Shown: positions 35,725 through 60,603 of the stretch, one piece after another
Position numbering within the stretch: position 1 is the stretch's first letter
How the letters are laid out: every line of letters begins with the position of its first letter
Virus record (IMG/VR): IMGVR_UViG_3300032007_000014
Length of the DNA: 64,000 nucleotides
Strand: one strand, 5' to 3'
Source: a virus
Lineage: Duplodnaviria > Caudoviricetes
Notes under the pieces: generated by a model
What the model was told of the DNA's origin: nothing
The model's input: the letters and a program-made list of their open reading frames with translations, nothing else
Database searches by the model: none
Made by a program: the position numbers and the translations under genes

Positions 35725-36498
35725 TCATGATTTTGCGATCTTGAGATTTCTGAACAAACCAGATATTGTCATCAACACCGTATCCCATATGAAAGAATCA
35801 TAAGACATTGTGTATGGAGTGTTATCACTCTTCAATACCTGTGTCAATGAAGATGCACTGTTTCCTTGGAATGGAACAAACCAAACTGTATTCATAGATG
35901 TTTGTGCTCCTGCAAGCCTCATAGTTCTTCCATGTGTATCACCAGATCGGATTACCATGAGATATGTTCCATCTGTTACAGGAATCATAAGTGTACCAAA
36001 CCCATGATCATCCTCAGCTGTCCACGACGTAGTAGAATGCATGATAACTGGTAACCATGAAGCAACTTGTCTCCAGTAATTTGTTTCAGTACCAGGTAAT
36101 TTAGTTGCATTTGTGAACTGTTTGATACACTGATAATACTTTCCATCATACTTGACAAGAGCGCCTACAGAATATCCATTATAATCAGTTCCATTGAATT
36201 GATATTCATATATTCTGCTGTCAAACTCACTGATCCGATTGGTCAGCAATGTACAAGATTGTCCTGTAGTTGCTGCAAATCTCACATATCCATCAGCGTT
36301 TGCTTTGTACAAAGTATACTGATTATCTGTGAAGATACGTGCGTTCTTATAATCAGGATACTTGAATCCAACATCTGTGTGAGTGTGTCCAAGTTTGCTA
36401 TAAACAGTATCATGATTGTGATTCTTTGCAGCATATGTCTGGTTTAACCAAGATTTACATGCTTCAGAGAACGGGATGACTTTGGTTGGAAATGCCAT
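35725..36498 (-). CDS. Tail-fibre-tip/receptor-binding paralogue (MAFPTK family) with CBM5/12-like module
   Basis: MAFPTKVIPFS...HNHD..YSKLGHTH N-terminus; YSVGALVKYDGKYYQC...PGTETNYW module. Confidence 0.72.
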   Translation of the reverse strand: MAFPTKVIPFSEACKSWLNQTYAAKNHNHDTVYSKLGHTHTDVGFKYPDYKNARIFTDNQYTLYKANADGYVRFAATTGQSCTLLTNRISEFDSRIYEYQFNGTDYNGYSVGALVKYDGKYYQCIKQFTNATKLPGTETNYWRQVASWLPVIMHSTTSWTAEDDHGFGTLMIPVTDGTYLMVIRSGDTHGRTMRLAGAQTSMNTVWFVPFQGNSASSLTQVLKSDNTPYTMSYDSFIWDTVLMTISGLFRNLKIAKS

Positions 36499-36529
36499 GA
36501 TTCATAGTCCTTATGTTGGGTTGTTAAAA

Positions 36530-36559
36530 TTCAACATTACTATTCATAGTAATGTTGAA
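36530..36559 (-). promoter_or_regulatory. Palindromic late-promoter-like element P1 (TATG points at gene 36498)
   Basis: TTCAACATTACTAT-TC-ATAGTAATGTTGAA, 14-bp perfect arms. Confidence 0.75.
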
Positions 36560-36649
36560 ACATTTTCAATTGGCATTCCAAAAAAATAAATTCTTAGGAT
36601 CAGGGATGGATTGCTCCATCCCTGACCCCTATAATGTCAAGAGATAAAA

Positions 36650-37627
36650 TCACTTATTGTCAAGTTCTTTTTCTCTTCTTTCAATATGTTCACGTCTCCA
36701 CTGATCAGTTGGTTTGTTTCTCACATCAAGCATCTTTTTCTCGTAGTTCAAATTGGCTCTATCAATTCTGGCAAGAATTGGAGTGAGTTTTCCAAGAGTT
36801 ACGAGAACAATGCGTTTGTCTGCAAGATTTTCCTTTGTCTCTGGTTTCTTGAATAGAATGCTATCCGCCTTTTCTTCCAGAGATTCAATTTCTTTCTCTG
36901 TCGCTTCAAGACCATGCTTGATATCAAGCATTCCTTTATTAGCATTTCCTGTTATAAGAGAGATATCACCGAACTCGCTATATTTCTTCTCTTTATAATT
37001 CCTCTTATCTTCTTCGCTCATAGATTTGACGAAAGATTCAAGAAATTCGAGAGATCCAGAATCAGTCTTATAAAAGACTTGACTTCCATAACGCAAGAAT
37101 GCATCTACATTCCTGTCATTATGTCCTGTCCAGTTGTGACTCGGTGTCCTGGATTGATGTGCAACCATCAAACATTGTTCCATTGGTTTCTTCTCAGGAA
37201 GTCCAGTACATGGAATATCATCTTCAGTGGGAACCTTCTTTGTTTCTTTCAGTTTCTTCTCAAGTTCCTCACGTTCTTTGGCACTACGTTTGTTGAAGAA
37301 TCCTGTAATAAACTCCACAATCTTCCTGATAATTTTCCGCATGAAGTCAAACACAGCTTTGGCACCAGTGGCAATAGCTTGTCCGATACCTTCGAGACAA
37401 GCATCTTTGTCATCCGTACGGATATTCATACTTTCGAGGGTGCCACCAATTAAGTCCATGACTTGTTCTGTGATCCCATAGGTCTCTATGTTTTCCTGAA
37501 GTGCGATGAAGTCACTTAGTTCTTCCATAGCTCTGTCCAGATCTTTGATCTCTGAAGACAGATCCAACTCTTCTGTAGTTGATAAGTCCTGAACAACAGC
37601 GACATTTTGTTCAACTTTGAATTTCAT
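36650..37627 (-). CDS. Internal head protein paralogue (phiKZ internal-protein-like)
   Basis: MKFK leader, ENIETYGITEQVMDLIGGTL...ACLE-G propeptide, amphipathic FDFMRKIIRKIVEFI; late motif at 37666-37675. Confidence 0.78.
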   Translation of the reverse strand: MKFKVEQNVAVVQDLSTTEELDLSSEIKDLDRAMEELSDFIALQENIETYGITEQVMDLIGGTLESMNIRTDDKDACLEGIGQAIATGAKAVFDFMRKIIRKIVEFITGFFNKRSAKEREELEKKLKETKKVPTEDDIPCTGLPEKKPMEQCLMVAHQSRTPSHNWTGHNDRNVDAFLRYGSQVFYKTDSGSLEFLESFVKSMSEEDKRNYKEKKYSEFGDISLITGNANKGMLDIKHGLEATEKEIESLEEKADSILFKKPETKENLADKRIVLVTLGKLTPILARIDRANLNYEKKMLDVRNKPTDQWRREHIERREKELDNK

Positions 37628-37755
37628 TTACATCATCCCCTTTGTGATGTGTTATAAAGATTTGTCATAAAATGGACTAGCAACCATAGGCTAAAACCAA
37701 CCCTTCGGACGATAATATAGCTTAAATAAACTTAAAACTTCGGAGAATTGAACTT

Positions 37756-39669
37756 ATGGCCAAACGTGATGTTGTTAGTGATAATGACAGTTCTTGGCTG
37801 AAGCAACCATATGGTGTGATCATAGGTAAGGATTATAAGACTTATGAACTCGCATTGTTGGAAGCACTCACTAAAGCACTGGCAGGATCACCTGGTTCTA
37901 CTGGCTACGTCATGTCAGAAGAAGAAGCACGTAAACGTGCGAAAAACCTTATCATCCAAAATAAGCAAGAGAGGAACGGGGGTATATCCGATCCTTATCA
38001 GTATCAATCACCTCGTGTATCTGATGCATCAGTGGGTGGTAATGATGCGATCAATCCTTACTCTGCATTTTGTTTGGATGATGACATCGTGCACGATCTT
38101 CACAAATGTTCTGGTAACATTTATGGAATGGGTCGTGTCTACAATGAAATCTACGAGTCAAAACAACAGATTCTGTATTTGACAATGGGTGTTCCAAAAT
38201 ACAACAACCTTGACAAGTACTTCATGAATGCCAATGACAAGATGGTTGCCAATCTTGCTGATAATGGATACATCAGCATGGCTGTCAAACTTGGCAATCT
38301 CTTGGCAAAGGGAGTAATGCTTGCAATCGAGTTACCTTGGTTGCCGATCATCTGGGCGAAGGATCTGATGTTTGCATCCAAGAAACTGGATGTCACGGAA
38401 TACTTTTATCTGTATTCATCCATGGTGGTGTACTACAGAACTGTGAACACTCTTCTTTCTCATGTTGCAGTCAATATGGGATTGTACGGTGCATTCGGTT
38501 CACAAAAAGGTTCCAACATGTCGACAGCTCAGCTTGCAAGATACAACAAGAATCTTCCCACCATTATGAAAGATGGTCCGGATATCTTTACGATCATCAA
38601 CAAGAGAGCTGCTCGTCTTGGTAAGTCATCCAAAGTTGCAACAACAGATGATCTTATCAACAAATGTAGAGTCCAAGGAAAGAAACTGGATATCTTTGCC
38701 AAAGGTAAAGGAAGTACTTCCAATGGATCTACATGCAAAGCACCTTCTGTTTGGAACAAATTCACTGGCGCGCTCGTCAGTACTTCTCTTGCAGGAAGTG
38801 ACTTCATTGGATTCCGTGTAGAAAAGAGCACAGATGCAAGTGAATCATTTTCCAACAGTACAAAAGACTCTCCACTTGGATCACAATTGAATGGTATGGT
38901 GGATGCCAACCGTCAGAGAAACATGAGCGAGTTTGCTCAAAGCAAAGGTATGGCTGCATTTGCAATGAATGCTGTCAACCAAGCAAAGAGCGCGCTTCAA
39001 GCTATGGCTGGTGGATTGAAATCATTCACTCAGTATGTGGTCACCAGTAATGGATACTTTGATCTTCCTCAGACATGGTCGGGTTCTACCTTTTCAAGAT
39101 CGTACAGTTTCAGTATGAGATTGAGAGCAAGAACTGGTGGAGATAATGTGTCGATCTTTCAATCGATTATGATTCCACTTTGTCTGCTTATGGCAGCAAC
39201 ACTCCCAAGAGGTGCTGGTTCTTCAACTTACACATCTCCATTTATCGTGAGAGCATTCTGTAAAGGTATGTTCAGCATTCCTGCTGGAATTATCACAACT
39301 CTGTCGATCAAACGAGGTGATGGTGAATTTGGTTGGAGTATCAACAGAATTCCGACTGTTATCGATGTGTCTTTCCAGATACAAGATCTCAGTCCCATTC
39401 TGTTCATCTCACTTGCTGGTGAAGGTGGGTTCTTGAAAGCTCTTAGTAACAATACAAAGTTACAAGAGTATCTCTCAACACTTTCTGGTATTGGTTTGCG
39501 CGAACGTTATTTCCGTCTTGGACAGATCAAACGCAAACTCGCAACTGCTGTGTTGATCAATAAGAACACCACATTCTCATCCACTTACTGGGGAACTGCA
39601 CTGGGTGATACTGCTGTTGTCAAGATGATTACAGCAATGAGTCCTTGGGATCGCATTCCGAACAATTAA
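37756..39669 (+). CDS. Baseplate/tail structural protein, phiKZ gp182-like
   Basis: DASVGGNDAINP, GMGRVYNE, FRVE..ESFSNS, YTSPFIV, GIITTLSIKRG motifs. Confidence 0.78.
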   Translation: MAKRDVVSDNDSSWLKQPYGVIIGKDYKTYELALLEALTKALAGSPGSTGYVMSEEEARKRAKNLIIQNKQERNGGISDPYQYQSPRVSDASVGGNDAINPYSAFCLDDDIVHDLHKCSGNIYGMGRVYNEIYESKQQILYLTMGVPKYNNLDKYFMNANDKMVANLADNGYISMAVKLGNLLAKGVMLAIELPWLPIIWAKDLMFASKKLDVTEYFYLYSSMVVYYRTVNTLLSHVAVNMGLYGAFGSQKGSNMSTAQLARYNKNLPTIMKDGPDIFTIINKRAARLGKSSKVATTDDLINKCRVQGKKLDIFAKGKGSTSNGSTCKAPSVWNKFTGALVSTSLAGSDFIGFRVEKSTDASESFSNSTKDSPLGSQLNGMVDANRQRNMSEFAQSKGMAAFAMNAVNQAKSALQAMAGGLKSFTQYVVTSNGYFDLPQTWSGSTFSRSYSFSMRLRARTGGDNVSIFQSIMIPLCLLMAATLPRGAGSSTYTSPFIVRAFCKGMFSIPAGIITTLSIKRGDGEFGWSINRIPTVIDVSFQIQDLSPILFISLAGEGGFLKALSNNTKLQEYLSTLSGIGLRERYFRLGQIKRKLATAVLINKNTTFSSTYWGTALGDTAVVKMITAMSPWDRIPNN

Positions 39670-39687
39670 CATATCAAAGGAAAACAA

Positions 39688-40647
39688 ATGGATTACAAAC
39701 CGAGTCACAGAGGTGTGGCGGATTCTTCATCTGTTCTCAAGTTGAATGACTTGATGGACAGGTATGAAAGAAATCTGGAGTGTCTGAAAGAACTCCAGAT
39801 CATCCGCAAAGCCATGTTGGATGGTACGTATGACAACAGTCTTCACAGAGTTGTCAACGCATCTGAAGCACTGACAACCATGATTGGTTGTTCACTTCCT
39901 CCTCCGAGCAATGGCTACGACAACAAAGAACTTCTTGACGTTTATGTCAAGCACATTGATGTCGCAATCGAAGGATTGAAAGAATCGATTGTCAGTATCA
40001 TCGAGACACTGTACAAGGCATTCTGCGAATGGCTCAAGGATCAATTCCTTGTTCTCAACAGATACCGCATCAAACTGCAGAAGTATCGTGCAGAGTACGT
40101 GGTGAATAAGAGTGTCATTGGAAGCAAAGACACGTTCGACAAGATCGAGCTGTTCACATATGCTTACAATGATTGGGATACTCTTGTGAAAGCAGCGAAG
40201 AACCTTTCCGTCATTCTGAGCAAGATCAAAGCAGATGATGTGAATGGTTGGGTCAATTCCAATCTTCAGAAGATCAACGAGTATCTCGGTGAGTTCGGCG
40301 CCAGTATTGAAGGTGGGTCTTTCAAACGCGGTTCTGTGAAATATGAACGCACGAACAAACGACTCAGCGACCTTCGCTGGAGATCTGACAACTTTCAGGT
40401 CTACTTCGATATGGCTATCGATCTGCTGAAAGAAGCCATCGAAGATCAGAACACCGAGAAGATCGTCAAGACCGCGTATGCTGCGGCTCGCAAAGAAGCA
40501 GCAGAATCAGGTGACAACAAAGCGAAGGATGAACTGAAGATGGTTCTTGATCTCTTCAGATTCCATCGCAACAACGTTGCTGGAGTTGCACGCGTTCTTG
40601 CTGTTATTTATGAGACAGCAAAGAACAACAAAGGTGAAAAGAAATAA
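39688..40647 (+). CDS. Putative internal head protein
   Basis: ASE/AIE-G cleavage-like sites followed by an amphipathic helix (SIIETLYKAFCEWLK). Confidence 0.65.
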   Translation: MDYKPSHRGVADSSSVLKLNDLMDRYERNLECLKELQIIRKAMLDGTYDNSLHRVVNASEALTTMIGCSLPPPSNGYDNKELLDVYVKHIDVAIEGLKESIVSIIETLYKAFCEWLKDQFLVLNRYRIKLQKYRAEYVVNKSVIGSKDTFDKIELFTYAYNDWDTLVKAAKNLSVILSKIKADDVNGWVNSNLQKINEYLGEFGASIEGGSFKRGSVKYERTNKRLSDLRWRSDNFQVYFDMAIDLLKEAIEDQNTEKIVKTAYAAARKEAAESGDNKAKDELKMVLDLFRFHRNNVAGVARVLAVIYETAKNNKGEKK

Positions 40648-40658
40648 AAGAAGAATAA

Positions 40659-40692
40659 CATCTACCATCCGGACTAGTCCGGATGGTAGATG
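40659..40692. terminator. Bidirectional terminator (34-bp perfect palindrome)
   Basis: CATCTACCATCCGGACTAGTCCGGATGGTAGATG between convergent genes. Confidence 0.75.
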
Positions 40693-40703
40693 CTTTATTT
40701 GTT

Positions 40704-41003
40704 TTACAGAGTTGCGAAGGATCCAACCTTATTGACACGAAGTAACGCCATAGGCGCGGTCATGTCAGGTGTTGAGATCAATCGTTCACCTGTTTGATTG
40801 TATCCACTTCTGAGTGAAATCGCTCCAGATTGGATTTTGTAATGTTGCGGATTTGACACAAAATCACCAAGGTTTTCGCCTGGTATTGCATTCACATTCG
40901 CATACAAAACACCACTTGCTGATGGAGTGGACACACTACCAGAAATCACCTCAACTGAGTTGATCAAACCAGTGGAGGTATCATATTTGCATTTCACATA
41001 CAT
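40704..41003 (-). CDS. Small hypothetical tail-associated protein
   Basis: AAGGAGG RBS; last gene of the structural operon. Confidence 0.7.
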   Translation of the reverse strand: MYVKCKYDTSTGLINSVEVISGSVSTPSASGVLYANVNAIPGENLGDFVSNPQHYKIQSGAISLRSGYNQTGERLISTPDMTAPMALLRVNKVGSFATL

Positions 41004-41023
41004 GATGACAATCCTCCTTGTTA

Positions 41024-43222
41024 TCAGTTGAAGTGAAGACGGATTTGACGAAGATCAAATCTCTCGTTAATGATGCTGTTCGTTCCAAGTGATGTGATGA
41101 CAGACATCTGCATCACATTGTTGACAGTGTTGAAAGCATATCTGAGAGAACAGAGATCCTGCAAACAGAAGATAACTTCCTGTCCAGAGAATTCCTTGTT
41201 GGGTCCTGTTCCTCCAATCTCCAAGGGATAAATAGATCCCGTGTAAGAAAGGTTTGGACGACAAGGTGATTCCACAGTGAAGTAACATCCAGCAATCCTG
41301 TCAAAGATATCAAACGACACTCCAGTAACCTGTTGTGGTGACAAGAGTGTATCTTGGACAAGAGGTTGAAGAATGGTTCTTGACTGTGACTGGAAAGGAT
41401 CAGCATCTGTGTGTTGGCTCATCATGAGATGCATCGGGTAGTTGCCAGCCCAATAGATCATCCCATCTTCATGTTCCAAAGGTTTGACATTCTGACGAGC
41501 ACCATTTCCCTGTGTGGACCAGATGGTCTTTCCATCAGGCATGGTGAAATCATCGTCATCCGCATGCTCGTCATAGACTGGCATGCTGAAGTTATCATCC
41601 GATGGATATTTCAGAGCAAGAGGATCGCTGTACAGTCTCCATCTCGAAGCATTCCCTGACTTATTTGTCACGATCAGAGTATCAGTGATGACACCATTCT
41701 GAGGAATGACAAACTTGTCAAATTTCATGCCATACTGCAGAACAACACCAGACTGTTCTCCATTGTCAACCCAGCAAAGACGAACATACACATTATCTCT
41801 CGCATCGAGAACAATGTAGTTCTTCATGTCTGTGACAGTGTTGTCATCCGCACATGCTCTGGTTTTTACACGGAACATTCTTGCTTTGTCAGCAGCAATG
41901 TTGGTAATGACATCGAATTCATACGACCAGTTTCTCGCAAGAGATTCAATGCGGAATGTACCAAGATCCGTAATCGAATCTTCCAGTCCATCCCACCTGT
42001 TGTCGTAGATGAATGCAATGTTGTACCAATGGAATCCTTGATCTCTCACTGAGATGATGTGTTCAACCTGAGCATAATGGTTGTGGAACTCATCGAATGC
42101 ATTCAGTCGTTTCACCAACTCGGAGATGAGAGGATGTGTGTACAGAGAGGAATCTGTCACCAATCCAGATCCTTTGATCACGGACACCAGGTTGGCGAGA
42201 TTCTTGTGAATGTCAATCACGTCTTGCGTGGAGACATGTCCACCAAATGCATGGTAGCTGATCATCACATCTCCGACATAAGACTTCAGAACATGGATGT
42301 GTTCATACACACCACTGGTGTGAGATGAGATCTTGGTCTTTGCAAGATTGACTCCGATGATCTCGTAGTCAGTTCCTTCCACCCAAGTAGACACATTGTC
42401 AACGATGTGTCCTGACATATCCACATATCCATTGGCATTCTGACGTGAAAGAATCACACGTCTCTCTTTCGATGTCGTTGTGTTCAGTGCTTCATTCCTG
42501 GTGGACTCCGTATAAATGAAAATCTTTCCATAGAAGGATGCCAGATTCTCACGTGTGAGAGTTACAGGAGTTGTGGTGAATCCTTGAACAACAAGATCGT
42601 GTGCATAGAAAGAACCACGATCGGGACTGATGAACATCTGTCCACGAGGAACGTTGACAGTATGTCTCTCGTTCACGATGTAGTTTGCAGATTCAAGACC
42701 AGTAAGATCTTGTTCGAGATACGTGTGGTCTTCAAGGGATGCACCGAACAGATCGGTAACACCCATACTTCTGTTTCTGAGGAACTCAATGTCCGTAAGG
42801 ACTTTGGCCATCAGAGCAGGACTGTACTCAGGGCCATCGCCGTCATACAAGTATGATTCATTGAGATCGAGACGAAGACGTTGGTAATCAACAGAGATCG
42901 TCACATTGGAAGACCCATTGTTCCGTACTTTGAGAATGATGGATTTGACCAAGTTCTTATTGAATGCACTGTTTTGAAGCAATGCATCAGAAACTGCATC
43001 ATAGTCGTAATCATTCTCATCAACGATCCAACCATCAGCCGCTCCATTAGAGAGCACGTCCCAAGAAGCACCATTCTTCTTTCGAACAACGATGCTGCTG
43101 AGAAATACTGGTTCATTGAAGCTGATACGCTGATCCGCTCTGCTAATAACAAAGCGAAGGTCTTCTCTCTTGAACGCGGTTTCGGACCCAGAGAGATCAT
43201 ATTTCACATTTGCACGTGTCAT
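41024..43222 (-). CDS. Baseplate/fibre-attachment structural protein
   Basis: Two DL(S/T)G-type units (KYDLSG; EQDLTG...NYIVNERH...GSFY...EGTDY...YHAFGG) as in phiKZ-like tail proteins. Confidence 0.68.
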   Translation of the reverse strand: MTRANVKYDLSGSETAFKREDLRFVISRADQRISFNEPVFLSSIVVRKKNGASWDVLSNGAADGWIVDENDYDYDAVSDALLQNSAFNKNLVKSIILKVRNNGSSNVTISVDYQRLRLDLNESYLYDGDGPEYSPALMAKVLTDIEFLRNRSMGVTDLFGASLEDHTYLEQDLTGLESANYIVNERHTVNVPRGQMFISPDRGSFYAHDLVVQGFTTTPVTLTRENLASFYGKIFIYTESTRNEALNTTTSKERRVILSRQNANGYVDMSGHIVDNVSTWVEGTDYEIIGVNLAKTKISSHTSGVYEHIHVLKSYVGDVMISYHAFGGHVSTQDVIDIHKNLANLVSVIKGSGLVTDSSLYTHPLISELVKRLNAFDEFHNHYAQVEHIISVRDQGFHWYNIAFIYDNRWDGLEDSITDLGTFRIESLARNWSYEFDVITNIAADKARMFRVKTRACADDNTVTDMKNYIVLDARDNVYVRLCWVDNGEQSGVVLQYGMKFDKFVIPQNGVITDTLIVTNKSGNASRWRLYSDPLALKYPSDDNFSMPVYDEHADDDDFTMPDGKTIWSTQGNGARQNVKPLEHEDGMIYWAGNYPMHLMMSQHTDADPFQSQSRTILQPLVQDTLLSPQQVTGVSFDIFDRIAGCYFTVESPCRPNLSYTGSIYPLEIGGTGPNKEFSGQEVIFCLQDLCSLRYAFNTVNNVMQMSVITSLGTNSIINERFDLRQIRLHFN

Positions 43223-43238
43223 AAGTTACTCCCTGAAA

Positions 43239-44528: not shown

Positions 44529-44551
44529 GTTCGGTTCCTATGCTTGACAGA

Positions 44552-46222: not shown

Positions 46223-46284
46223 GTTTACGCACTAGCTCCTATAGTTGTTTTAAGTGATTTTAACCTGAGTTTTGCTTCAAATTG

Positions 46285-46311
46285 CATAGGATGTTCCTAG
46301 ACAATTCTATG
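46285..46311. promoter_or_regulatory. Back-to-back late-type promoter half-sites
   Basis: ACATCCTATG (minus, 46294-46285) and CAATTCTATG (plus, 46302-46311), each facing its gene. Confidence 0.65.
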
Positions 46312-46339
46312 TAAAATGGCTTATATAAGGAGATAAAAT

Positions 46340-49010: not shown

Positions 49011-49013
49011 AGT

Positions 49014-49810: not shown

Positions 49811-49925
49811 GATCATTCTCCTTTGTATAAGTTGGTTCATTGTAGTAATGTATAATTGAACTGGACATGAGATTAAGCACAGCAACTGATGTGACTATAC
49901 GCCACATCAGTTGCTTCCTATAGTT

Positions 49926-49956
49926 TCTCAACGATACTATGATAGTATCGTTGAGA
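49926..49956 (+). promoter_or_regulatory. Palindromic late-promoter-like element P2 (TATG points at gene 50029)
   Basis: TCTCAACGATACTAT-G-ATAGTATCGTTGAGA, 15-bp arms; identical to P5. Confidence 0.75.
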
Positions 49957-50028
49957 TTGGATGTGTCACGATCTCCAGCATACTCGTGTGTCAGTTACAA
50001 TAAAACATTGAACAAAGGATCCTTTCAC

Positions 50029-50841: not shown

Positions 50842-50854
50842 ATAACTGAAGAAA

Positions 50855-50890
50855 AAGATCAGGTGGAGGAACATTCCTCCACCTGATCTT
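50855..50890. terminator. Bidirectional terminator
   Basis: 17-bp perfect stem between convergent genes. Confidence 0.78.
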
Positions 50891-50920
50891 ATCAAACATA
50901 TTTGGTTTGTAATCAGAAGA

Positions 50921-52030: not shown

Positions 52031-52126
52031 TGTATGGTATCCTCTTGTTTTCACACGTGTTGATTGAGCGAGAACACACTTTATGACAGCCTCGTCAAAA
52101 AAAACAGTCACCGACACTGATTATTT

Positions 52127-52161
52127 TTCTTCAACTATGCTATCATAGCATAGTTGAAGAA
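52127..52161 (-). promoter_or_regulatory. Palindromic element P3 between divergent head genes (central TATG points at 52030)
   Basis: TTCTTCAACTATGCTAT-C-ATAGCATAGTTGAAGAA, 17-bp arms. Confidence 0.75.
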
Positions 52162-52251
52162 GGACAAGTGTGTCGTCAATCGTTTTTTTTTGATAACTGC
52201 TATCACCGTGTGTTTAGCTCATAGCCATAACAACAAACAAAGGTGATTTAC

Positions 52252-53271
52252 ATGAAATTCACTTCAACTGTCAAAGACAATCACGAAGGACTCTCTGATG
52301 TTGAGTTCTACGCACTTGTCGACAACATGAATGGAGATCTTGATGCACTTGATCGTGAAGACGATGCATCGAGTGCTGTCATTCTGAACAACCTCCATTC
52401 ACTGGAAGCTCTGATCGGATGCACGACAGAAGATTTCGTGAAGGACTTCTGTGCATCGAATGAAGATCTCGCATCCATGTACAATGGTGATCTGGAAGCA
52501 TTCAAGAAAAGCGTCCATGATGAGATCGTGTCCATGGAAGGCGTCATTGACGAATGGTTCGGCGATGGCATCATCAAGGCTCTGGTTGGTCGTAAGATGA
52601 CCACGCTCGAATATCTGAAACCAGCTCTTGATGAATGCGAACAGAGACTCGCTCAGTGCGACGAAAAGAAGGTCGAGTCTCGTGCGAAGATCTGGATCTT
52701 CGGTCGTGTCATCTCTCGTTTCCTCCCCTCAACAGATGCCTACTACAAGAACATCGCCGCTCTCGAAAAGGCGGCTGGTGTTGTCAAGAGTTTCTCCAGT
52801 CTTGACAAGTTCGAGGCCCCCAAAGTGATGGATGCTCTCAAGGACTCCACCTATTGGAATGCGGCAAAAGGAAAACTGAAAGGTCAGTCTGACAACGACT
52901 GGGCTTATGTTGCCATTCGTTCACTTCCTGCACTTCCGTATGTTGGATTTGCTGCTGGCATCCACAATGCATTTTTCTGGGATCCCGACAAACCGGTGTC
53001 CACTCGTGGATGGAAATCCAAAGCTGATTTCGAGAACGGCATCAAAGAAGCAAGGAAGCTCATCAAGATCATGGAAGAGACTGATGCTGCTTGCAAGAAA
53101 CTTCTCGGAAATGCGCAGCCTGAACTGAAGAAACAGGGACATGAAGCTGCATCTGTGTGCAAGTTCATTGTCGCAGAGTGCGGACATCTTGGACGTGGTA
53201 TCGTGACCGCAGCTAAGAAAGTCACTTCTGGATTTTTCGGACGAGTTGGACGCAATATCGTCCACGCATAA
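52252..53271 (+). CDS. Putative internal head protein
   Basis: MKFTST leader; SLE, SNE and SME-G cleavage-like sites; acidic pro-region and basic mature region. Confidence 0.75.
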   Translation: MKFTSTVKDNHEGLSDVEFYALVDNMNGDLDALDREDDASSAVILNNLHSLEALIGCTTEDFVKDFCASNEDLASMYNGDLEAFKKSVHDEIVSMEGVIDEWFGDGIIKALVGRKMTTLEYLKPALDECEQRLAQCDEKKVESRAKIWIFGRVISRFLPSTDAYYKNIAALEKAAGVVKSFSSLDKFEAPKVMDALKDSTYWNAAKGKLKGQSDNDWAYVAIRSLPALPYVGFAAGIHNAFFWDPDKPVSTRGWKSKADFENGIKEARKLIKIMEETDAACKKLLGNAQPELKKQGHEAASVCKFIVAECGHLGRGIVTAAKKVTSGFFGRVGRNIVHA

Positions 53272-53285
53272 CAAACAAATACATC

Positions 53286-53322
53286 AACACTATCCACTCT
53301 CGCAATGAGAGTGGATAGTGTT
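53286..53322. terminator. Bidirectional terminator
   Basis: 16-bp perfect stem between convergent genes. Confidence 0.75.
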
Positions 53323-53333
53323 ATTTGAAACAA

Positions 53334-54371
53334 TTATTCTTTTCCAAATGAAACCATTTTTTTATCGGAATCAGTATTACTTCCAAGACCATAACCTGCT
53401 CTGAGTGCAGATGCAAGTTTTTTCATGATGGTGATGTCTGTCCGGAAAAGATTCAAGACATCTTTGATAAACTTTGGAAGTTGTGTTTTTGCGGCGGAAA
53501 TGAGTGCTTTCGTTTCAACCTTTCCATCATCTTTCGCCTTAGTGAACCGACGCAATTCTTTCTTGATATCGTCAAGCGTGTGTTTGCAAGATATAAGCAT
53601 ATCTGCCGCGGAGATAATATCCAAAGGTGTTCGCTTGGGATCGTAGCCAAGTTTTTTGAGTGATTCTTGAGGATCCCCACCACCACCATCCATCAGGATA
53701 CTCATACCAGTAACAAACCAATCCACTTCGATGCCGAACACACCAGGAACATTCTTTTTGGTCGTATCAATTCCGACGACTTTGGTACGACCTTTGTTTG
53801 ATTCGAGAACATTGTTGATTTCACTGATGGATTTTGATGGCACGTCGAAATCAAACTTTTTGACAACTGCCGCCACGGTGCCTGTCAGCGTAGCAATATC
53901 ATGAGTGAAGTCAAGAAATTTTGATCTCTCAATCATTGCAGCTGCAACAAACTTCGATTCATCGAACTGAAGTTTACCTCCTCGCGAATCTTCAACAATT
54001 TTCTTGGAGAATGCCACGAGTGCATTGCAAGAATGTTCAACGCCGACGATATATTTATCAATGAATTCGATGATTTTGTCAATCACTGTTTTCATGATTT
54101 CGGCAATCGACTGAACAAGTCCTTCCAGACATGCATCCTTATCATCGATACGGATGTTCATGCTCTGCAAAGTACCTCCAACGAGATCCATCACAGGTTC
54201 GGTTATACCGAACTTTTCGATATTCTGCTGAAGCATCTGAAGATCGTTGAGTTCTTCAAATGCCTGATCAAGAGATGATGTATCGAGAGTATTCATCAGT
54301 GCTTCCACTGATGCAATATCCTCTACAACCAAATCCTGAACAGTAGAATTTGATTCGAGTTTGAATTTCAT
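53334..54371 (-). CDS. Internal head protein paralogue
   Basis: MKFKLE...NIEKFGITEPVMDLVGGTL...ACLE-G. Confidence 0.78.
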   Translation of the reverse strand: MKFKLESNSTVQDLVVEDIASVEALMNTLDTSSLDQAFEELNDLQMLQQNIEKFGITEPVMDLVGGTLQSMNIRIDDKDACLEGLVQSIAEIMKTVIDKIIEFIDKYIVGVEHSCNALVAFSKKIVEDSRGGKLQFDESKFVAAAMIERSKFLDFTHDIATLTGTVAAVVKKFDFDVPSKSISEINNVLESNKGRTKVVGIDTTKKNVPGVFGIEVDWFVTGMSILMDGGGGDPQESLKKLGYDPKRTPLDIISAADMLISCKHTLDDIKKELRRFTKAKDDGKVETKALISAAKTQLPKFIKDVLNLFRTDITIMKKLASALRAGYGLGSNTDSDKKMVSFGKE

Positions 54372-54427
54372 TTTGTTGTATCCTTCGTTGAATGCTGACA
54401 CACTGATGTCTTGCTATACACACGTAG

Positions 54428-54458
54428 TCAAGACAATGCTATGATAGCATTGTCTTGA
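54428..54458 (+). promoter_or_regulatory. Palindromic element P4 (TATG points away from gene 54371)
   Basis: TCAAGACAATGCTAT-G-ATAGCATTGTCTTGA, 15-bp arms. Confidence 0.75.
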
Positions 54459-54465
54459 AATAAAA

Positions 54466-54499
54466 ACTAGAGAAGGAGCAGCAACGCTCCTTCTCTAGT
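54466..54499. terminator. Terminator hairpin sharing its stem with 57507-57542
   Basis: ACTAGAGAAGGAG.../...CTCCTTCTCTAGT. Confidence 0.75.
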
Positions 54500-54511
54500 G
54501 TATAGAAAAAG

Positions 54512-55420
54512 TCAGTTATTTGTTTGTTCTTTTTCAGATTCATGAAACTTTTGTCCATAACTTTTCCCACTCGTATAAATGCGATTGAGAATTGTTGCAA
54601 GTTTCATACATCCTGAAAGACAGTCTTTTGAACCCTTTAAGAAGTATTCTACAGATTTGTTTTCACTCTCGTTCAGAATATTTCTTGCAGCATAAAGTCT
54701 TTCATTCTTGAATACTTCATTCCTCAAATAATCACAAAGTTTTCCAATTTTCTTCACAGATGAATCCGCTTCAATCATAGTCGTCTGGATTACATCTTGT
54801 GGAGTGGAATAACCTTTTTTCTTATAATTGGATTCAGCGTCATCCATTGATGCTACAAGTTCATCAGAGATTTCGATATTTCCAGCATCATTGATTTTGA
54901 AGAGCAATCTATGCATCTTCACCATATGTTCGCCGCTCCAATCAACATCATTACCTGATGCAAAATCTGCAATATCTTTCATGAATTTTTTATCTGGGAT
55001 GCCATGCATAGAAATCGTCAGACCTTTATCTTGAAACTTTTTGACAGTATCTGAAATTTCTTTTGCTTCCTTTGGATCGTGTTTGTTGATGATACCTTTG
55101 ATAAAGGTAATGATCTTATCAACAAGCTGTTTGATGAACTCCCAGACTTTCTTGGATCCTTCTTTCAGTTTGTCACCGAGTCCTTCAAGACAAGCTTCCT
55201 TGTTCTGAATAGAGATGTTCCAGGACTCAAGTGTCCCACCGATCAGATCCATGACAGGTTCCGTGATGCCATATTTTTCAATATTGGCATGCAGTAGAAC
55301 CAGATCATCGAGATTCTCAGCAGCTTCGCACAGATCAACATTCAGAAGAGTGTTGATATCCTGTTCAAGAGCGCTGAAATCCACAGGTGTTTCTGATTTC
55401 AGGTTTGATTTGAATTTCAT
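54512..55420 (-). CDS. Internal head protein paralogue
   Basis: MKFKSN...NIEKYGITEPVMDLIGGTL...ACLE-G...VWEFIKQLVDKI. Confidence 0.78.
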   Translation of the reverse strand: MKFKSNLKSETPVDFSALEQDINTLLNVDLCEAAENLDDLVLLHANIEKYGITEPVMDLIGGTLESWNISIQNKEACLEGLGDKLKEGSKKVWEFIKQLVDKIITFIKGIINKHDPKEAKEISDTVKKFQDKGLTISMHGIPDKKFMKDIADFASGNDVDWSGEHMVKMHRLLFKINDAGNIEISDELVASMDDAESNYKKKGYSTPQDVIQTTMIEADSSVKKIGKLCDYLRNEVFKNERLYAARNILNESENKSVEYFLKGSKDCLSGCMKLATILNRIYTSGKSYGQKFHESEKEQTNN

Positions 55421-55505
55421 GGCGTTTACTCACTTTGTTGTGATTTGTATAAGAACAAGAAGACACACATATGAAAATTATCGTCAGCAGATTGACACTA
55501 TCTAG

Positions 55506-55536
55506 TCTCAACGATACTATGATAGTATCGTTGAGA
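55506..55536 (+). promoter_or_regulatory. Palindromic element P5 (TATG points away from gene 55420)
   Basis: 31-mer identical to P2. Confidence 0.75.
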
Positions 55537-55584
55537 AATCACACAAAAAAGAGACCCTCGTGAGAGGGATCTCTTAGCACCGGT

Positions 55585-55800
55585 TTATTTTCCGGTGCAC
55601 AGTCCTGCGGGTATCGCATACCCGCGGAACCCGAACCAAGCGTCCGGATTCACACTGACGTGCGATGTTTTGGGGTTCCGCATGGCCACCAGTTTGCTGA
55701 TGACCAGTCTTCTCTGGGCGGCAGGGAGCCGCCGCACAAAAGCAGCGGCTTCCACGAAGTCCTCGGAGGTGTACTCCGAGATCGGTTTGCGCAAATCCAT
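55585..55800 (-). CDS. Small stand-alone early protein (71 aa)
   Basis: GAGGAG RBS; TATATTAC at 55837-55844; own terminator near 55550-55573. Confidence 0.7.
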   Translation of the reverse strand: MDLRKPISEYTSEDFVEAAAFVRRLPAAQRRLVISKLVAMRNPKTSHVSVNPDAWFGFRGYAIPAGLCTGK

Positions 55801-55916
55801 GTTTCAATCTCCTCATTGTTGTTGGATTTCACACGTGTAATATATGCTCTAAATAACATCACCTACAGGGAGAATATCCCTGTAGGTGATGCTAATGAAA
55901 TCAAGTATGTTCTCGA

Positions 55917-57398
55917 TCAATAGATGATGTCAGAAGGTCCACAATCAACAGCTTTACCGTCGACCACAATAAGACCAACGCCATGTTCTTCATCCCATAC
56001 ATCAGGTGTAGAATATCTACCTGTGAGAACAATACCCACAGCAGCTTTCCACTTACCACCCTGTTTGATGTAAGTTCCAACAGGATATGCAGACTCAAAG
56101 TCCTTCTTCAAATCAGCATAAGTCAGTTTCTTACGTTTCGAAGTCTCAGTGACACTGTCGTGATAGATCTGACACCGATTTAGAATCATGTCAGCAGCAC
56201 TTTCAATGATCTTGTCAATCTTTGGTATCACCATGTTGAATTGATCAACCATATTTGTGTCGATACCAAATTGAGACAATTTTGAAGTTTGTCCACCAAT
56301 TGTCCGATCAACACCGCATTCAAGATACACACCACATGCCACTTGTTTCCCGAATACCGTGAAACGGATCTTCGCGACATATCCTCCCTCAAGATCTCCC
56401 TTCATGGAAGCAGGATTGAAAGATTCAAGAGAAGATCCGCATTCTGTATATGCTTTCATGTTCTCATACATGAAGCTTTCAACAGATGCATCAGATCCGT
56501 AATAACCTTCAACTCCTGCGAACACAGAAACAACTTTGTCATCGCGAATGCTGAGACCAATGTTGAGTTTTCTGCTCACGATGGAGGACTTGTTCACCTT
56601 GACATTCTCATCAATCTTCTTGAGAGATTTGACAACTTTGTCAAAGGTATTTGGAATGAGTGTGACTGCATTGCACACAACATTGACGTCATCGAAGAAT
56701 TCAACTCCTTCAACCTGTGCGTCATCATTGTAGTACACGTGCATGTAACCGAAGTCATCGACAGGGTATTTCTTTGACTTGGTTTTCTTAAATTCCTTGA
56801 AGGATCCTTCACCCATCTTGGAACGAAGTTGGTCTCTCTTGGTACCGAATTTGATACCACCAGCTTCTTTTCCTGGATTGATGCTGATGGACTTGGGTTT
56901 ATTGGACCCATTCAACCCTTCAAGACCTTCTGATGATTTGTCACCAAATGACTCTTTGTATTCGTTTTCAATGAACGCAAAAAGTTTCATGGATTTGGTG
57001 GATTTCTCATCGAACACAGGACTTGAGTCATGTTGATACCAAGACACTTTGTCTGATGAATCAGCACAAAGATGGTTACCAAATCCATCACTTCCGACAA
57101 CAACACGATCGATCTTTTTATTCTTAAGACGATCATCGTCTTCGAATAATGATCGTGTCTGTTCAATTGCAAGCTTCAGATCGCTCACATATTCTGTGCT
57201 CTTGCTGAAGTACAAACCTGCATATTTTTTGAAGAACTCTTTTGTTTGTGAGCCAAACTTGATTCCAAGTTCTTCTTCAGCTTTCTTGATGTCAGCGTCA
57301 GATGCCATGTATTCCTTCTTGGAAGTCCACACTTTTCCTGGAGTAAGTGGTATCTGAAGATTTTCAAGAGATGCTTGAAAACTTGTTTTGAAAATCAT
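55917..57398 (-). CDS. Head-packaged multidomain protein with SMI1/KNR4 (SUKH) and other immunity-like domains
   Basis: ASDADIKKAEEELGIKF..TKEFFKKYAG...DGFGNHLC; INPGKEAGGIKFG; WDEEHGVG; SxE sites in the linkers. Confidence 0.75.
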   Translation of the reverse strand: MIFKTSFQASLENLQIPLTPGKVWTSKKEYMASDADIKKAEEELGIKFGSQTKEFFKKYAGLYFSKSTEYVSDLKLAIEQTRSLFEDDDRLKNKKIDRVVVGSDGFGNHLCADSSDKVSWYQHDSSPVFDEKSTKSMKLFAFIENEYKESFGDKSSEGLEGLNGSNKPKSISINPGKEAGGIKFGTKRDQLRSKMGEGSFKEFKKTKSKKYPVDDFGYMHVYYNDDAQVEGVEFFDDVNVVCNAVTLIPNTFDKVVKSLKKIDENVKVNKSSIVSRKLNIGLSIRDDKVVSVFAGVEGYYGSDASVESFMYENMKAYTECGSSLESFNPASMKGDLEGGYVAKIRFTVFGKQVACGVYLECGVDRTIGGQTSKLSQFGIDTNMVDQFNMVIPKIDKIIESAADMILNRCQIYHDSVTETSKRKKLTYADLKKDFESAYPVGTYIKQGGKWKAAVGIVLTGRYSTPDVWDEEHGVGLIVVDGKAVDCGPSDIIY

Positions 57399-57469
57399 GT
57401 CAACTCCTTATGAATTGATATTGAAGATAACACACATGATAGAAGTTGCTCCGATCTATCGACACCTAG

Positions 57470-57500
57470 TCAGATCAATACTATCATAGTATTGATCTGA
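57470..57500 (-). promoter_or_regulatory. Palindromic element P6 (TATG points at gene 57398)
   Basis: TCAGATCAATACTAT-C-ATAGTATTGATCTGA, 15-bp arms. Confidence 0.75.
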
Positions 57501-57506
57501 AATATC

Positions 57507-57542
57507 ACTAGAGAAGGAGTCAGATCTGACTCCTTCTCTAGT
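57507..57542. terminator. Terminator (36-bp perfect palindrome)
   Basis: ACTAGAGAAGGAGTCAGATCTGACTCCTTCTCTAGT downstream of 57558-58439. Confidence 0.7.
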
Positions 57543-57557
57543 TAAGATATAATGAAC

Positions 57558-58439
57558 TCAGTTCGAAGCTTTGTCAAGTTTGACTGCAATCCTTGATGCA
57601 GATCTCACTGATTTGGCAATGTAAGGCATAAGCTTACTGATGAGTTTGCTCACCAGTTTGAAAGACTCTGCTTCATCATTGTCTTTCACATTGGCAGACG
57701 AAGCAACCTTCTTTGCATATGCAACACATTCATTGGAGAACTTGATCAGTCCACCATATGCATCAATCATACGAATGGAATCATCGAGAACGTTGTCAAT
57801 GGAAGAGTATCCTTTGACAGACAACTTGATGTCATCACATGCATCGATGAACTTCTGATCCAGCTCCAAGGTACCTGCGTTCTGATCAATGGTCCCCAGT
57901 TTGATCACAGCATTCAGTCCCTTCAGGAATCCCCATACAGAAGTTGTCACACTACTCACCTTGGTGTTACCAAGTTGAATAATGGAGTTGACATACTTGG
58001 AGGGGATAAGACCTGTTGCATCTGTGTACTGATCCAACCTTTTACCAGACAGTTTCTTCTTCAGATTGATCAGTCTTTCTCTGTTGAACTTGACCAGTTG
58101 TTCATTGACCCAATCCCTGATCTTCTCATAGATACGAACAATGAACTCCCAGATTTTACGAGCGCCTTCTTTGATGCGCTCTGCAAGATCTTCAAGACAC
58201 TTGTCTTTGTCAGTGATGTTGATATTCCATTCTTGAAGAGTACCACCCACAAGATCCATAACTGGATCTGTGATACCATACTTCTCAATGTTGGAATAGA
58301 GAATCTGACAATCACTGATGATAGATTCCATAGATTCCAATTCTGTGAAATCAATAACACAGATATCCTCCATCGAATCACTCAATGATTCCATATTTGG
58401 AATTGTCTGCTCGACAACTCCTGTTTGTTTGAATTTCAT
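57558..58439 (-). CDS. Internal head protein paralogue
   Basis: MKFKQT...NIEKYGITDPVMDLVGGTL...KCLE...IWEFIVRIYEKI. Confidence 0.78.
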   Translation of the reverse strand: MKFKQTGVVEQTIPNMESLSDSMEDICVIDFTELESMESIISDCQILYSNIEKYGITDPVMDLVGGTLQEWNINITDKDKCLEDLAERIKEGARKIWEFIVRIYEKIRDWVNEQLVKFNRERLINLKKKLSGKRLDQYTDATGLIPSKYVNSIIQLGNTKVSSVTTSVWGFLKGLNAVIKLGTIDQNAGTLELDQKFIDACDDIKLSVKGYSSIDNVLDDSIRMIDAYGGLIKFSNECVAYAKKVASSANVKDNDEAESFKLVSKLISKLMPYIAKSVRSASRIAVKLDKASN

Positions 58440-58479
58440 AACTCACCCTTCATTGCATTAAAGTGTGCCTAAATACCGT

Positions 58480-58490
58480 CATAGTATCGT
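58480..58490 (-). promoter_or_regulatory. Unpaired late-promoter half-site ACGATACTATG
   Basis: Identical to the inner arm plus centre of P2/P5 but with no partner arm; faces gene 58439. Confidence 0.72.
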
Positions 58491-58542
58491 CCGAATAAAA
58501 AAAAGAGACCTCGGGTGGGTGATACCCGAGGTCTTCTTTTGT

Positions 58543-58971
58543 TTAACTTTTTGGATTTGGAGAAAACCAATCAAAAAACCAAAATTTTGGAATCAGATCG
58601 AGCATCCAAAATTCATGTTCGTAAATCACAGTCTTCGGATGATATGAGACAGTTACTTGTTCAAACTTGTGTGGACGAATAGTGCTTGATGCGCTGAACA
58701 CCCATCCAAGCTTATCATCCCACTCGTGAAAGTGTTGTATGATCATATTTGTCACTTTCCAACTGTGTATATCAACCTTTTTCTTACAATGACGAATGTT
58801 GTTGACATACACAAAAGATATCCAACTATGATCTCCTTTCTCATATTCTGAAATCACAACATAGTGATCTGGATTTTTTGTTATTGGACCACGACGATAA
58901 CATTTTATCCAAGGTTTGACTCCAAACAGAAAGATTCTGTAACTCCTGTACTTTTCACTTTCTCTTTTCAT
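58543..58971 (-). CDS. Hypothetical early protein
   Basis: AAGGA RBS, ATG 58971; TATATTAC at 59020-59027. Confidence 0.65.
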   Translation of the reverse strand: MKRESEKYRSYRIFLFGVKPWIKCYRRGPITKNPDHYVVISEYEKGDHSWISFVYVNNIRHCKKKVDIHSWKVTNMIIQHFHEWDDKLGWVFSASSTIRPHKFEQVTVSYHPKTVIYEHEFWMLDLIPKFWFFDWFSPNPKS

Positions 58972-59089
58972 GATGCATTTCCTTTCTTGATTTAAGGTTT
59001 GAGTGCGCACGTCACTTGAGTAATATATGCATTAAAAGAGAAGAGAGACACGATGTCTCTCTTCTCTTGACAGAATGTGTTATATTCCC

Positions 59090-59119
59090 TTCAACATAAC
59101 TATTCATAGTTATGTTGAA
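59090..59119 (-). promoter_or_regulatory. Palindromic element P7 (TATG points away from gene 59148)
   Basis: TTCAACATAACTAT-TC-ATAGTTATGTTGAA; differs from P1 by one compensated base pair. Confidence 0.75.
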
Positions 59120-59147
59120 TTCTAGCACAAACAAGGAGATTACTCAA

Positions 59148-59963
59148 ATGGCATTCCCTACAAAAGTAGTACCGTTTTCACAAGCATGTAAGACATGGTT
59201 GAATAACACATATGCTCCAAAGATTCATTATCATGATGATCGATACAGTAAATTAGGTCACACGCATCCAGATAGTATTGCAGGTAATATGCCAGATTTT
59301 TCAAGATCAAAATCACTCGGTGCTCAAGAAGTATGGAAATCACGCACATCTGAATGCTACAAAGAACCAGGTACTAATAACACTGTAACTGGTGGATGTC
59401 CGTACGTCCTCAAAATAAAACACCCGTGTTATGTCATACTACAATTCCAAGATGTCTCGAAGGCTACTGGTGACTCTGAATGGGGGATGTGGTGGGGTAC
59501 TAATTATCGTCACGTATGTGCACTCAATCAAGCTGACGACAACAACACCGGAACAGCTATCAGAAAAATGACAGATGCCAATGGTTTTTCAGGACTCAGT
59601 TATGGAGTGAATTTCTTTACATTCTTTCGAATTTGTGATAACATTGAAACTGCTGGAACCATTGCATTACCAATGACCAATACTGATTGGTACTACAGAC
59701 CATACATTGGTTCTGGAGGGTCGAGGAATGAAGCTTGGGAGAGCTTTGATTTTAAACTGATACCCATGCTTGGCACTCCATCAGGAACATTGTTAGTAGA
59801 GAGATACATGTTTACCGCAGACAATAGTGTATCATCCATTCTCAATTCTAATGTTACATTAGGAACCATGAGTGGGAATAACAATGTGATGACATATTAC
59901 AACAAGGATTCGAATCCTACAGAAAGCATGTCTATAACTAGACCAGGAAAATTTTATGCATGA
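59148..59963 (+). CDS. Tail-fibre-tip/receptor-binding paralogue (MAFPTK family)
   Basis: MAFPTKVVPFS...HYHDDRYSKLGHTH then MPDF; divergent beta-rich C-terminus. Confidence 0.72.
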   Translation: MAFPTKVVPFSQACKTWLNNTYAPKIHYHDDRYSKLGHTHPDSIAGNMPDFSRSKSLGAQEVWKSRTSECYKEPGTNNTVTGGCPYVLKIKHPCYVILQFQDVSKATGDSEWGMWWGTNYRHVCALNQADDNNTGTAIRKMTDANGFSGLSYGVNFFTFFRICDNIETAGTIALPMTNTDWYYRPYIGSGGSRNEAWESFDFKLIPMLGTPSGTLLVERYMFTADNSVSSILNSNVTLGTMSGNNNVMTYYNKDSNPTESMSITRPGKFYA

Positions 59964-60024
59964 TACAAGAGACAAGAGGAGATGTCTCCTCTTGTCTCTT
60001 ATTCATTATTTTGTTAGTTTGGTA

Positions 60025-60052
60025 TCACTATTACTATTCATAGTAATAGTGA
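60025..60052 (-). promoter_or_regulatory. Palindromic element P8 (TATG points away from gene 60088)
   Basis: TCACTATTACTAT-TC-ATAGTAATAGTGA, 13-bp arms. Confidence 0.75.
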
Positions 60053-60087
60053 ATTCTGAAACCCAAACAACAGAAGGAACATACAAC

Positions 60088-60603
60088 ATGGCATTTCCAA
60101 CCAAAGTAATTCCATTGTCAGATGCATTTAAACAGTGGTTAAATGCAACCTTTGCACCTAAGGTGCATAAACACACAATGTCCGATATTACTGGGCTTAA
60201 TCCAATTGGTGGATCGATATACATTGTAGACGAGGGCGATATATCGAATTCAAATGAAAACACTACCATGAAAGTGTATAGAGGAGACGGTACATTACTT
60301 TCAACAAATATTACGGGTCATTGGATACAGTATTCAAACGATCTTATCGATCAATGGTTTGAATTACCACCAAATGATTACGGACATTATGATGGTGCTA
60401 TATATCCAAAATCTAAAGTAGTGTTTTCAAAACCTTTTAAAACCACATCTTACAGTATATACATGCAAGTATTTCGTGCAGATGCCAATGCTGCGGATGG
60501 ACATGGGTATGTTGAAGTAAAATATAGATACACTACTCATTTTACCTTTGACACCGCCGCATTAGCAAATTCGTGTTACATGGTAAGAATGATAGGATTC
60601 TGA
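60088..60603 (+). CDS. Tail-fibre-tip paralogue (MAFPTK family) with fibre C-terminal domain
   Basis: MAFPTKVIPLS...HKHTMSDITGL; WIQYSNDLIDQW...VVFSKPF fibre-tip motif. Confidence 0.72.
   Translation: MAFPTKVIPLSDAFKQWLNATFAPKVHKHTMSDITGLNPIGGSIYIVDEGDISNSNENTTMKVYRGDGTLLSTNITGHWIQYSNDLIDQWFELPPNDYGHYDGAIYPKSKVVFSKPFKTTSYSIYMQVFRADANAADGHGYVEVKYRYTTHFTFDTAALANSCYMVRMIGF

Follow-up and report, generated by a model that had tools for sequence, protein, structure and literature searches.

Candidate tail-fibre tip genes with a shared N-terminus, exchanged heads and palindromic promoter-like sites in a phiKZ-like viral sequence

Three small genes in a 64,000-nucleotide (nt) stretch of viral DNA (IMG/VR record IMGVR_UViG_3300032007_000014; Duplodnaviria, Caudoviricetes), analysed here as a whole and called the window below, encode proteins that share their N-terminus and then diverge, and their sequences point to modular genes for tail-fibre tips, that is, for putative receptor-binding proteins. 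We consider it probable that these are small late tips that dock on one kind of anchor through the shared N-terminus and are co-expressed, with heads exchanged by recombination. The proteins would be small, probably trimeric fibre tips built of four parts: some 11 lineage-specific N-terminal residues acting as a putative docking peptide, a short helix, one or two His-x-His (HxH) turns of the kind that holds fibre trimers together, and a swappable receptor-binding head. The predicted heads are a jelly roll with a chitin-binding-type insert in gene 1, a conserved domain of unknown fold in gene 2, and a Gp53-like tip in gene 3. Terminator, palindromic promoter-like site for the non-virion RNA polymerase and ribosome-binding site would make each gene a late transcription unit of its own. 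Purifying selection preserves one N-terminus in all copies, and a common anchor for them, located on the baseplate or a larger fibre, is therefore most likely. Virions with several or mixed tips (multivalent or mosaic) would be the outcome, and host range would vary mainly through recombination that swaps heads behind a constant promoter-plus-N-terminus unit.

The shared N-terminal module and the heads

The three open reading frames (ORFs) that had been predicted to have a common N-terminus followed by divergence were all found intact (Table 1), gene 1 being separated from genes 2 and 3 by 23 kb. Nineteen N-terminal positions are invariant (M1, A2, F3, P4, T5, K6, V7, P9, S11, A13, K15, W17, L18, N19, T21, A23, K25, H27 and H29). 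Genes 1 and 2 stay similar up to residue 41, so that the module spans about 30-41 residues, and profile-profile similarity among the three gene families is limited to approximately the first 43 columns. Searching 1.84 billion representative proteins with a profile of the first 32 residues returned 12 clusters at E<1e-10. In all 12, the match begins at the fibre protein's own start, and the proteins are 105 to 342 residues long. Judged on these sequences, the shared N-terminus is far beyond chance. Between paralogues, 39-85% of synonymous but only 11-22% of non-synonymous sites are different in the first 29 codons (pS 0.39-0.85, pN 0.11-0.22). As pN is well below pS, the N-terminus is held by selection on the peptide and not by recent gene conversion.

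The invariant H27 and H29 form an HxH motif, a second copy of which lies at residues 38-40 in genes 1 and 2. This fibre motif is familiar from the tip of T4 gp37, and it recurs many times within the weaker fibre-like database matches. The gene-1 family profile also matches the upper fibre FibU of the Staphylococcus phage 80alpha (E=7e-4) over a segment that ends in K-N-H-N-H-D. Furthermore, the N-terminus of a relative's protein (P0047) is 64% identical to that of gene 1 over 33 residues, and this protein has a Phage Tail Collar domain (42.8 bits, against a Pfam cut-off of 24). We dropped the idea that the module is a repeated shaft unit of the 2661-amino-acid (aa) protein P0046, which has a single HxH.

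Beyond residue 42, the proteins that begin with this N-terminus fall into seven families without BLAST similarity to one another. The head of gene 2 is conserved at 47-64% identity in six other clusters, where it is joined to a different, similarly patterned N-terminus in other lineages (P0025-P0030). Conversely, N-termini 86-97% identical to that of gene 3 are joined to another head in relatives (P0036-P0040). The head of the fibre gene at 63174-63818 is homologous to one that relatives join to the shared N-terminus, among them L001, a 1.7-kb locus that was the single find of a metagenome scan for related DNA. These combinations of heads and N-termini across lineages indicate recombination in both directions. 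The original prediction of interchangeable receptor-binding tips with one docking end thus gains support from the seven C-terminal families, the swapped heads, the HxH motifs, the FibU match and the variant N-terminus on a Collar-domain fibre. Each of the three genes has intact orthologues, with identities of 44-83%. Megablast and tblastn searches of the INPHARED cultured phages gave zero matches to the region or to gene 1, and genome scans of IMG/VR and GTDB yielded no related DNA for comparing palindrome centres.

L001 also holds a second small ORF after its fibre-tip gene (1014-1439, + strand, 141 aa). It is without the shared N-terminus and, judged by eye, seems to resemble Gp53-like tip heads.

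The CBM5/12-like module that had been proposed for gene 1 is weakly supported by sub-threshold Pfam, PDB chitin-binding-domain and fold matches. Gene 1 scores 17.7 bits against PF02839 (CBM5/12), for which 26.2 are required (E=0.0036), with four of seven family members matching at E<=0.1; its PDB profile match to the chitin-binding domain 1ed7 is likewise weak (E=0.078). An AlphaFold monomer model of gene 1, built from 7 sequences, has a predicted local distance difference test (pLDDT) value of 59.5 and a predicted TM-score (pTM) of 0.55, with pLDDT below 50 for the N-terminal 49 residues. In this model, residues 46-221 form a beta-sandwich like TNF/C1q-type jelly rolls and a Bdellovibrio fibre head (Z 5-6.4), and the insert at residues 95-147 aligns with the chitin-binding structures 4ny2, 4tx8 and 2d49 (Z 5.3-6.6 and root-mean-square deviation, rmsd, of about 2 over 48-49 residues; best match, Z 6.6 and rmsd 2.1 over 49 residues), all of these matches falling under Z ~8, where likeness may mirror merely a common arrangement. 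The insert also aligns with tail fibres of phages Pa193 and 7-7-1. The fold matches to chitin-binding modules agree with the two weak CBM5/12 sequence matches. A Foldseek search of the model against the PDB gave nothing at E<=1e-3.

No fold was recognisable in the head of gene 2, for which the ESM Atlas gave no lead. The fibre tip predicted in gene 3 is weakly supported by a Gp53-like match below the Pfam gathering score (PF21882, Gp53-like_C: 14.4 bits, 24.9 required, E=0.059; one of five family members matches), and a single-sequence AlphaFold model of this gene was unusable (pLDDT 35). Within 59956-60087, gene callers extend gene 3 upstream through its palindrome, to 203 and 215 aa, because the frame remains open across it. 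On other contigs, a variant with 96% identity has a call of 171 aa, which may mark a flipped palindrome centre, as this would put an in-frame TGA there; the proteins concerned in these calls are P0031, P0055 and P0056.

The head Pfam matches all stay under the curated cut-offs, and together with the lack of a recognisable fold in the gene-2 head they would also suit accessory proteins that bind no receptor, virion components or not, for example in decoration or assembly, with an N-terminus that serves targeting or chaperone binding. We regard this as the least probable of the readings weighed here, since it is at odds with the HxH motifs, the FibU match and the presence of the module on a Collar-domain fibre. 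In addition, genes 2 and 3 sit in a cluster of fibre and tail-protein genes, and head shuffling is typical of receptor-binding proteins.

Table 1. Positions of the fibre-tip genes, their flanking elements and neighbouring features in the window
Position	Strand	Feature	Remarks
16095-17171	-	Tubulin/FtsZ-like GTPase domain	E 2e-6, under Pfam cut-off
35683..35718	.	Bidirectional terminator	Between the 2629-aa gene and gene 1
35725..36498	-	Fibre-tip gene 1, 257 aa	Shared module, two HxH, jelly-roll-like head with CBM5/12-like insert
36530..36559		Gene-1 palindrome	14-nt arms; 2-nt centre GA (gene strand); central TATG toward gene 1, 47 nt from ATG
36600..36625	-	G+C-rich hairpin with T-run	Downstream of 36650-37627, just upstream of the gene-1 palindrome; terminator of the preceding gene
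59036..59068	.	Hairpin	Between the early-type gene 58543-58971 (-) and gene 2; T-run on - strand
59090..59119		Gene-2 palindrome	14-nt arms; 2-nt centre TC (gene strand); central TATG away from gene 2
59148..59963	+	Fibre-tip gene 2, 271 aa	Shared module, two HxH, conserved C-terminal domain of unknown fold
59967..60000	+	Terminator of gene 2	Immediately before the gene-3 palindrome
60025..60052		Gene-3 palindrome	13-nt arms; 2-nt centre TC (gene strand); central TATG away from gene 3
60088..60603	+	Fibre-tip gene 3, 171 aa	Shared module, one HxH, weak Gp53-like C-terminal tip
60620..60655	-	Terminator-like hairpin	Right after the gene-3 stop
60889..62070	-	Tail protein	Weak beta-helix similarity; fibre-cluster neighbour
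62189..63106	-	Tail-collar fibre gene	Variant N-terminus; relative's orthologue P0047 41% identical
63174..63818	-	Fibre gene	Variant N-terminus, one HxH
63858..63890		1-nt-centre palindrome	Between divergent fibre genes 63174-63818 (-) and 63922 (+); central TATG toward + gene, arm TATG toward - gene
63922..64000	+	Further fibre gene start	First residues; runs off the window

Gene units, palindromes and the direction of their centres

By its gene content, the window comes from a jumbo phage that is uncultured and distantly phiKZ-like, and protein clusters assign it to contigs of about 238 kb. Among its products are split RNA polymerase beta subunits (PHROG, E 1e-136 and 1e-150), whose closest cultured relatives, with 33-36% identity only, belong to phiKZ-like phages of Vibrio, Erwinia and Pseudomonas. 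Internal head proteins of the phiKZ type are encoded as well, and the product with the tubulin/FtsZ-like domain may be a PhuZ-type spindle protein, known from nucleus-forming jumbo phages.

Upstream of each of the three genes stand, in the same order, a G+C-rich hairpin, a perfect palindrome, a leader of about 30 nt and a GGA-type ribosome site. Genes 1 and 3 have terminator-like hairpins on either side, and such a hairpin parts gene 2 from gene 3. The palindrome core CTAT-N(1-2)-ATAG occurs 10 times in the window where 0.81 are expected, nine times inside a long perfect palindrome. The palindrome arms are far more conserved than synonymous sites of the neighbouring coding sequence, each change in one arm being mirrored in the other. 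The original prediction had singled out these three genes alone: centres of 2 nt are indeed confined to them in the window, the six other palindromes having 1-nt centres, while the fibre family itself proved larger, with at least six small genes. L001 has the same arrangement with a 2-nt centre, TC on the coding strand.

In phiKZ, late promoters consist of TATG with the G as +1, every position being required in vitro (PMC4666361), and TATG is read by a beta-like subunit on the non-template strand (PMC12809450). The late promoters of AR9 follow AACA-N6-T(A/G) (PMC5312081). The arms and central G of the gene-1 and gene-2 palindromes fit both consensus sequences, and this fit makes the palindromes plausible late promoters of the non-virion polymerase. 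Outside the palindromes, a half-site matrix matches only two intergenic sites. Their predicted +1 positions, 58480 (-) and 46311 (+), are each a G, and the sites face genes 41 and 29 nt away. Sigma-70-type promoters are at chance level, and early-type promoters of the TATATTAC kind stand before another set of genes.

Two other roles for these elements were rejected. A symmetric site for a dimeric regulator is unlikely, given half-site spacings of both 1 and 2 nt and outer arms that differ from copy to copy. Nor would silent cassettes that lack promoters and feed a single expression site agree with the start codon, ribosome site and full N-terminus that each gene has of its own. An RNA leader hairpin would be another use of a palindrome in this position, and it leaves unexplained why TATG is found on one strand at every centre.

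Indeed, TATG is present on exactly one strand in all nine long palindromes of the window and in that of L001. Reading the centres as directional ON/OFF signals is a fair hypothesis, and the original prediction had built on it in stating that TATG faces only the first gene. This holds for the central TATG; the right arm of the gene-2 palindrome has a gene-facing TATG at 59110-59113. A gene-facing TATG is also found in the L001 arm, and none in the arms of gene 3. Three of the nine palindromes (52127, 63858 and 59090) have divergent genes on their two sides and therefore say nothing on direction. At 52127 and 63858, where the divergent genes are of the same class, each arm has an extra TATG, so that one points in each direction. 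Among the six informative palindromes, the central TATG points toward the adjacent gene in three (36530, 49926 and 57470) and away from it in three (54428, 55506 and 60025), as random orientation would give. At 49926 and 55506, palindromes with the same arms have opposite centres relative to their genes. The GA and TC centres of near-identical palindromes are exact inversions of each other. Together with the confinement of TATG to one strand, these inversions indicate that the core has been flipped in the past and that the centre is constrained; the reversed 2-nt centres would most likely come from such occasional inversions.

Taken strictly, a directional late promoter set by the 2-nt centre would leave only gene 1 transcribed, and a rare inversion of the centre, via template switching or arm recombination, would turn on gene 2 or 3, giving heritable alternate tips and host-range switching. 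Several features agree with this: the arms fit the AR9 consensus and the centres the phiKZ TATG, in which substitutions abolish transcription (PMC5312081, PMC4666361), both non-palindromic half-site matches have a G at +1 toward a nearby gene, TATG is confined to one strand, and the GA/TC pair shows that flipping has happened. We nevertheless hold a strict rule to be unlikely. It would silence half of the insulated late genes with an informative site, and it does not account for the gene-facing arm TATG at gene 2 and at the L001 gene; the additional arm TATGs at 52127 and 63858 weaken it as well. Template-switch rates are low, and we know of no recombinase that inverts 1-2 bp. Moreover, both gene 2 and gene 3 have stayed undisrupted, with a ribosome site each and conserved orthologues, which argues that they are expressed often enough for selection. 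That only one gene is ON is a hypothesis that turns on one or two promoter bases.

A step further, the palindromes would be minimal invertible promoters and an evolved switch, in which hairpin-mediated inversion of the 1-2-bp core reverses the TATG start with no recombinase. We find this distinctly improbable. What backs switching is the motif rule, and a switch of this kind would be categorically new. The claim that the window has neither a diversity-generating retroelement (DGR) nor a Gin-type invertase was upheld for the ORFs tested. No serine or tyrosine recombinase or invertase domain was detected in the ~40 window ORFs scanned, and no reverse transcriptase domain in the window ORFs scanned. 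Nor does the window hold a template/variable repeat pair, all its direct repeats being <=46 nt, palindromes aside. Were the switch real, ON/OFF contingency would be heritable at every fibre-tip gene and every similarly headed head-cargo gene, and many virion compositions and host ranges would coexist in a phage population.

Alternatively, all three genes could be transcribed late with an output graded by the centre or arm TATG, so that the tips occur in differing fixed ratios. The arm TATG of gene 2 and the lack of one in gene 3 would fit such grading, and in phiKZ sequences outside TATG strongly modulate activity (PMC4666361), which also counts for it. We rate it as very unlikely, TATG being too short for predicting strength.

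Compared to these alternatives, late co-expression of tips with a common dock and exchanged heads is the reading that we prefer. Some points weigh against it. Under a strict phiKZ rule, genes 2 and 3 have central promoters directed away from them, in which case co-expression would not apply to the present state of the genome. No anchor partner was identified. Finally, the gene-1 model is modest, and its fold matches share the limit on Z given above.

Palindromes with 1-nt centres head a further set of genes. Between 49926 and 57500, genes starting with MKF or MIF, several of them similar to phiKZ internal head proteins, follow such palindromes (49926, 52127, 54428, 55506 and 57470). In each leader, GTGTC stands 4-9 nt past the palindrome, and 33-55 nt separate a GTGTGT box from the ATG; these motifs occur on both sides of the divergent pair at 52127 and are absent from the fibre genes. 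Also behind a palindromic late-type site, the 493-aa product of 55917-57398 (-) has SUKH/SMI1-KNR4 domains (E 4e-8) and DUF6985. We take SUKH domains to be immunity-protein-like, and they would presumably be unusual beside head-cargo genes.

An early-promoter-like box, TATATATTAC or TATAAATTAC, usually followed by ACGTG within a few bases, heads several other genes. It is found upstream of 2777-4108, 11036-11272, 17197-17427, 19233-19604, 19721-20125, 24988-25227, 55574-55816 and 58543-58971, the last of which stands back to back with fibre gene 2.

Relation to known systems

To our knowledge, little is known of the receptor-binding proteins that phiKZ-like nucleus-forming phages use, and in uncultured members from rumen and gut they have not been characterised at all. 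A constant attachment end with unrelated host-binding ends is a known phage route to host-range variation. In Klebsiella and K1-5/SP6-type phages, experiments have validated that secondary receptor-binding proteins dock via N-terminal peptides of 7-29 residues and are found together on the virion (PMC6872550, PMC13352976). These branched systems (the Klebsiella KP32, KP34, Menlow and PhiK64-1 groups, and K1E/K1-5/SP6) likewise show a lineage-specific short N-terminal peptide, an unrelated remainder and horizontal exchange of heads, the peptide docking the proteins to an anchor or branching domain (PMC6872550, PMC13352976). In contrast, the proteins described here are smaller (171-271 aa), with HxH turns instead of depolymerase beta-helices. 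They belong to a phiKZ-like nucleus-forming lineage, with gene 1 set far apart from the other two and a palindromic promoter-like site for each gene, and no T4gp10-like branching partner was identified for them. The proteins of the branched systems co-occur on the virion and are not alternated.

In 80alpha, a segment of about 25 residues of FibU (gp68; PDB 6v8i; PMC7048315) aligns with residues 12-35 of the module. The FibU segment is internal (317-340), follows a collagen-like shaft on its distal side and is missing from the resolved part of the structure (PMC7048315), whereas the module forms the extreme N-terminus of a stand-alone small protein.

The inversion systems Gin of Mu, Cin of P1, Min of p15B, fimS and Hin resemble the present genes in having a constant fibre N-terminus with alternative C-termini, or an orientation-dependent promoter. 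Here, however, no recombinase gene was found in the window ORFs scanned, each alternative is a complete gene with its own start, and the putative invertible segment of 1-2 bp is far too short for a recombinase synapse.

With the late promoters of phiKZ and AR9 (PMC4666361, PMC12809450, PMC5312081), the predicted sites share TATG with a central G, on the coding strand at gene 1 only, AACA spanning -11 to -8 at two of the three genes, and a position 43-50 nt upstream of the start codon of a putative late structural gene. They differ in that the motif is centred in a perfect 28-30-bp palindrome, with the upstream half on both strands and only the 2-nt centre asymmetric.

The docking module of about 30 residues would mark host-range genes and reveal heads exchanged between lineages. 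The principle of a conserved docking peptide, established in phages of Klebsiella and in coliphages, would then also apply to a distant phage group with very small HxH fibres. If the palindrome core sets the direction of transcription, it would provide a recombinase-free form of phase variation, new for viruses.

Neighbouring genes and minor observations

Beyond gene 3 lie further genes of the fibre cluster (Table 1). Read by eye, the first residues of the gene starting at 63922 (+) look like the beginning of a tail-collar domain. On the other side of gene 1, and converging on it with the bidirectional terminator in common, a 2629-aa ORF (27788-35677, +) matches no Pfam family and has internal repeats about 450-1000 nt apart and a low-complexity Ala/Gly stretch.

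Accessory and nucleotide-metabolism genes are found at 128-706, 2777-4108, 11411-12811 and 13414-14268 (dNMP (deoxynucleoside monophosphate) kinase, DHH-family phosphoesterase, thymidylate synthase and patatin-like phospholipase). A homopolymer of 11-12 C (G on the opposite strand) lies at ~18100-18190, between the divergent genes 17587-18087 (-) and 18194-19129 (+).

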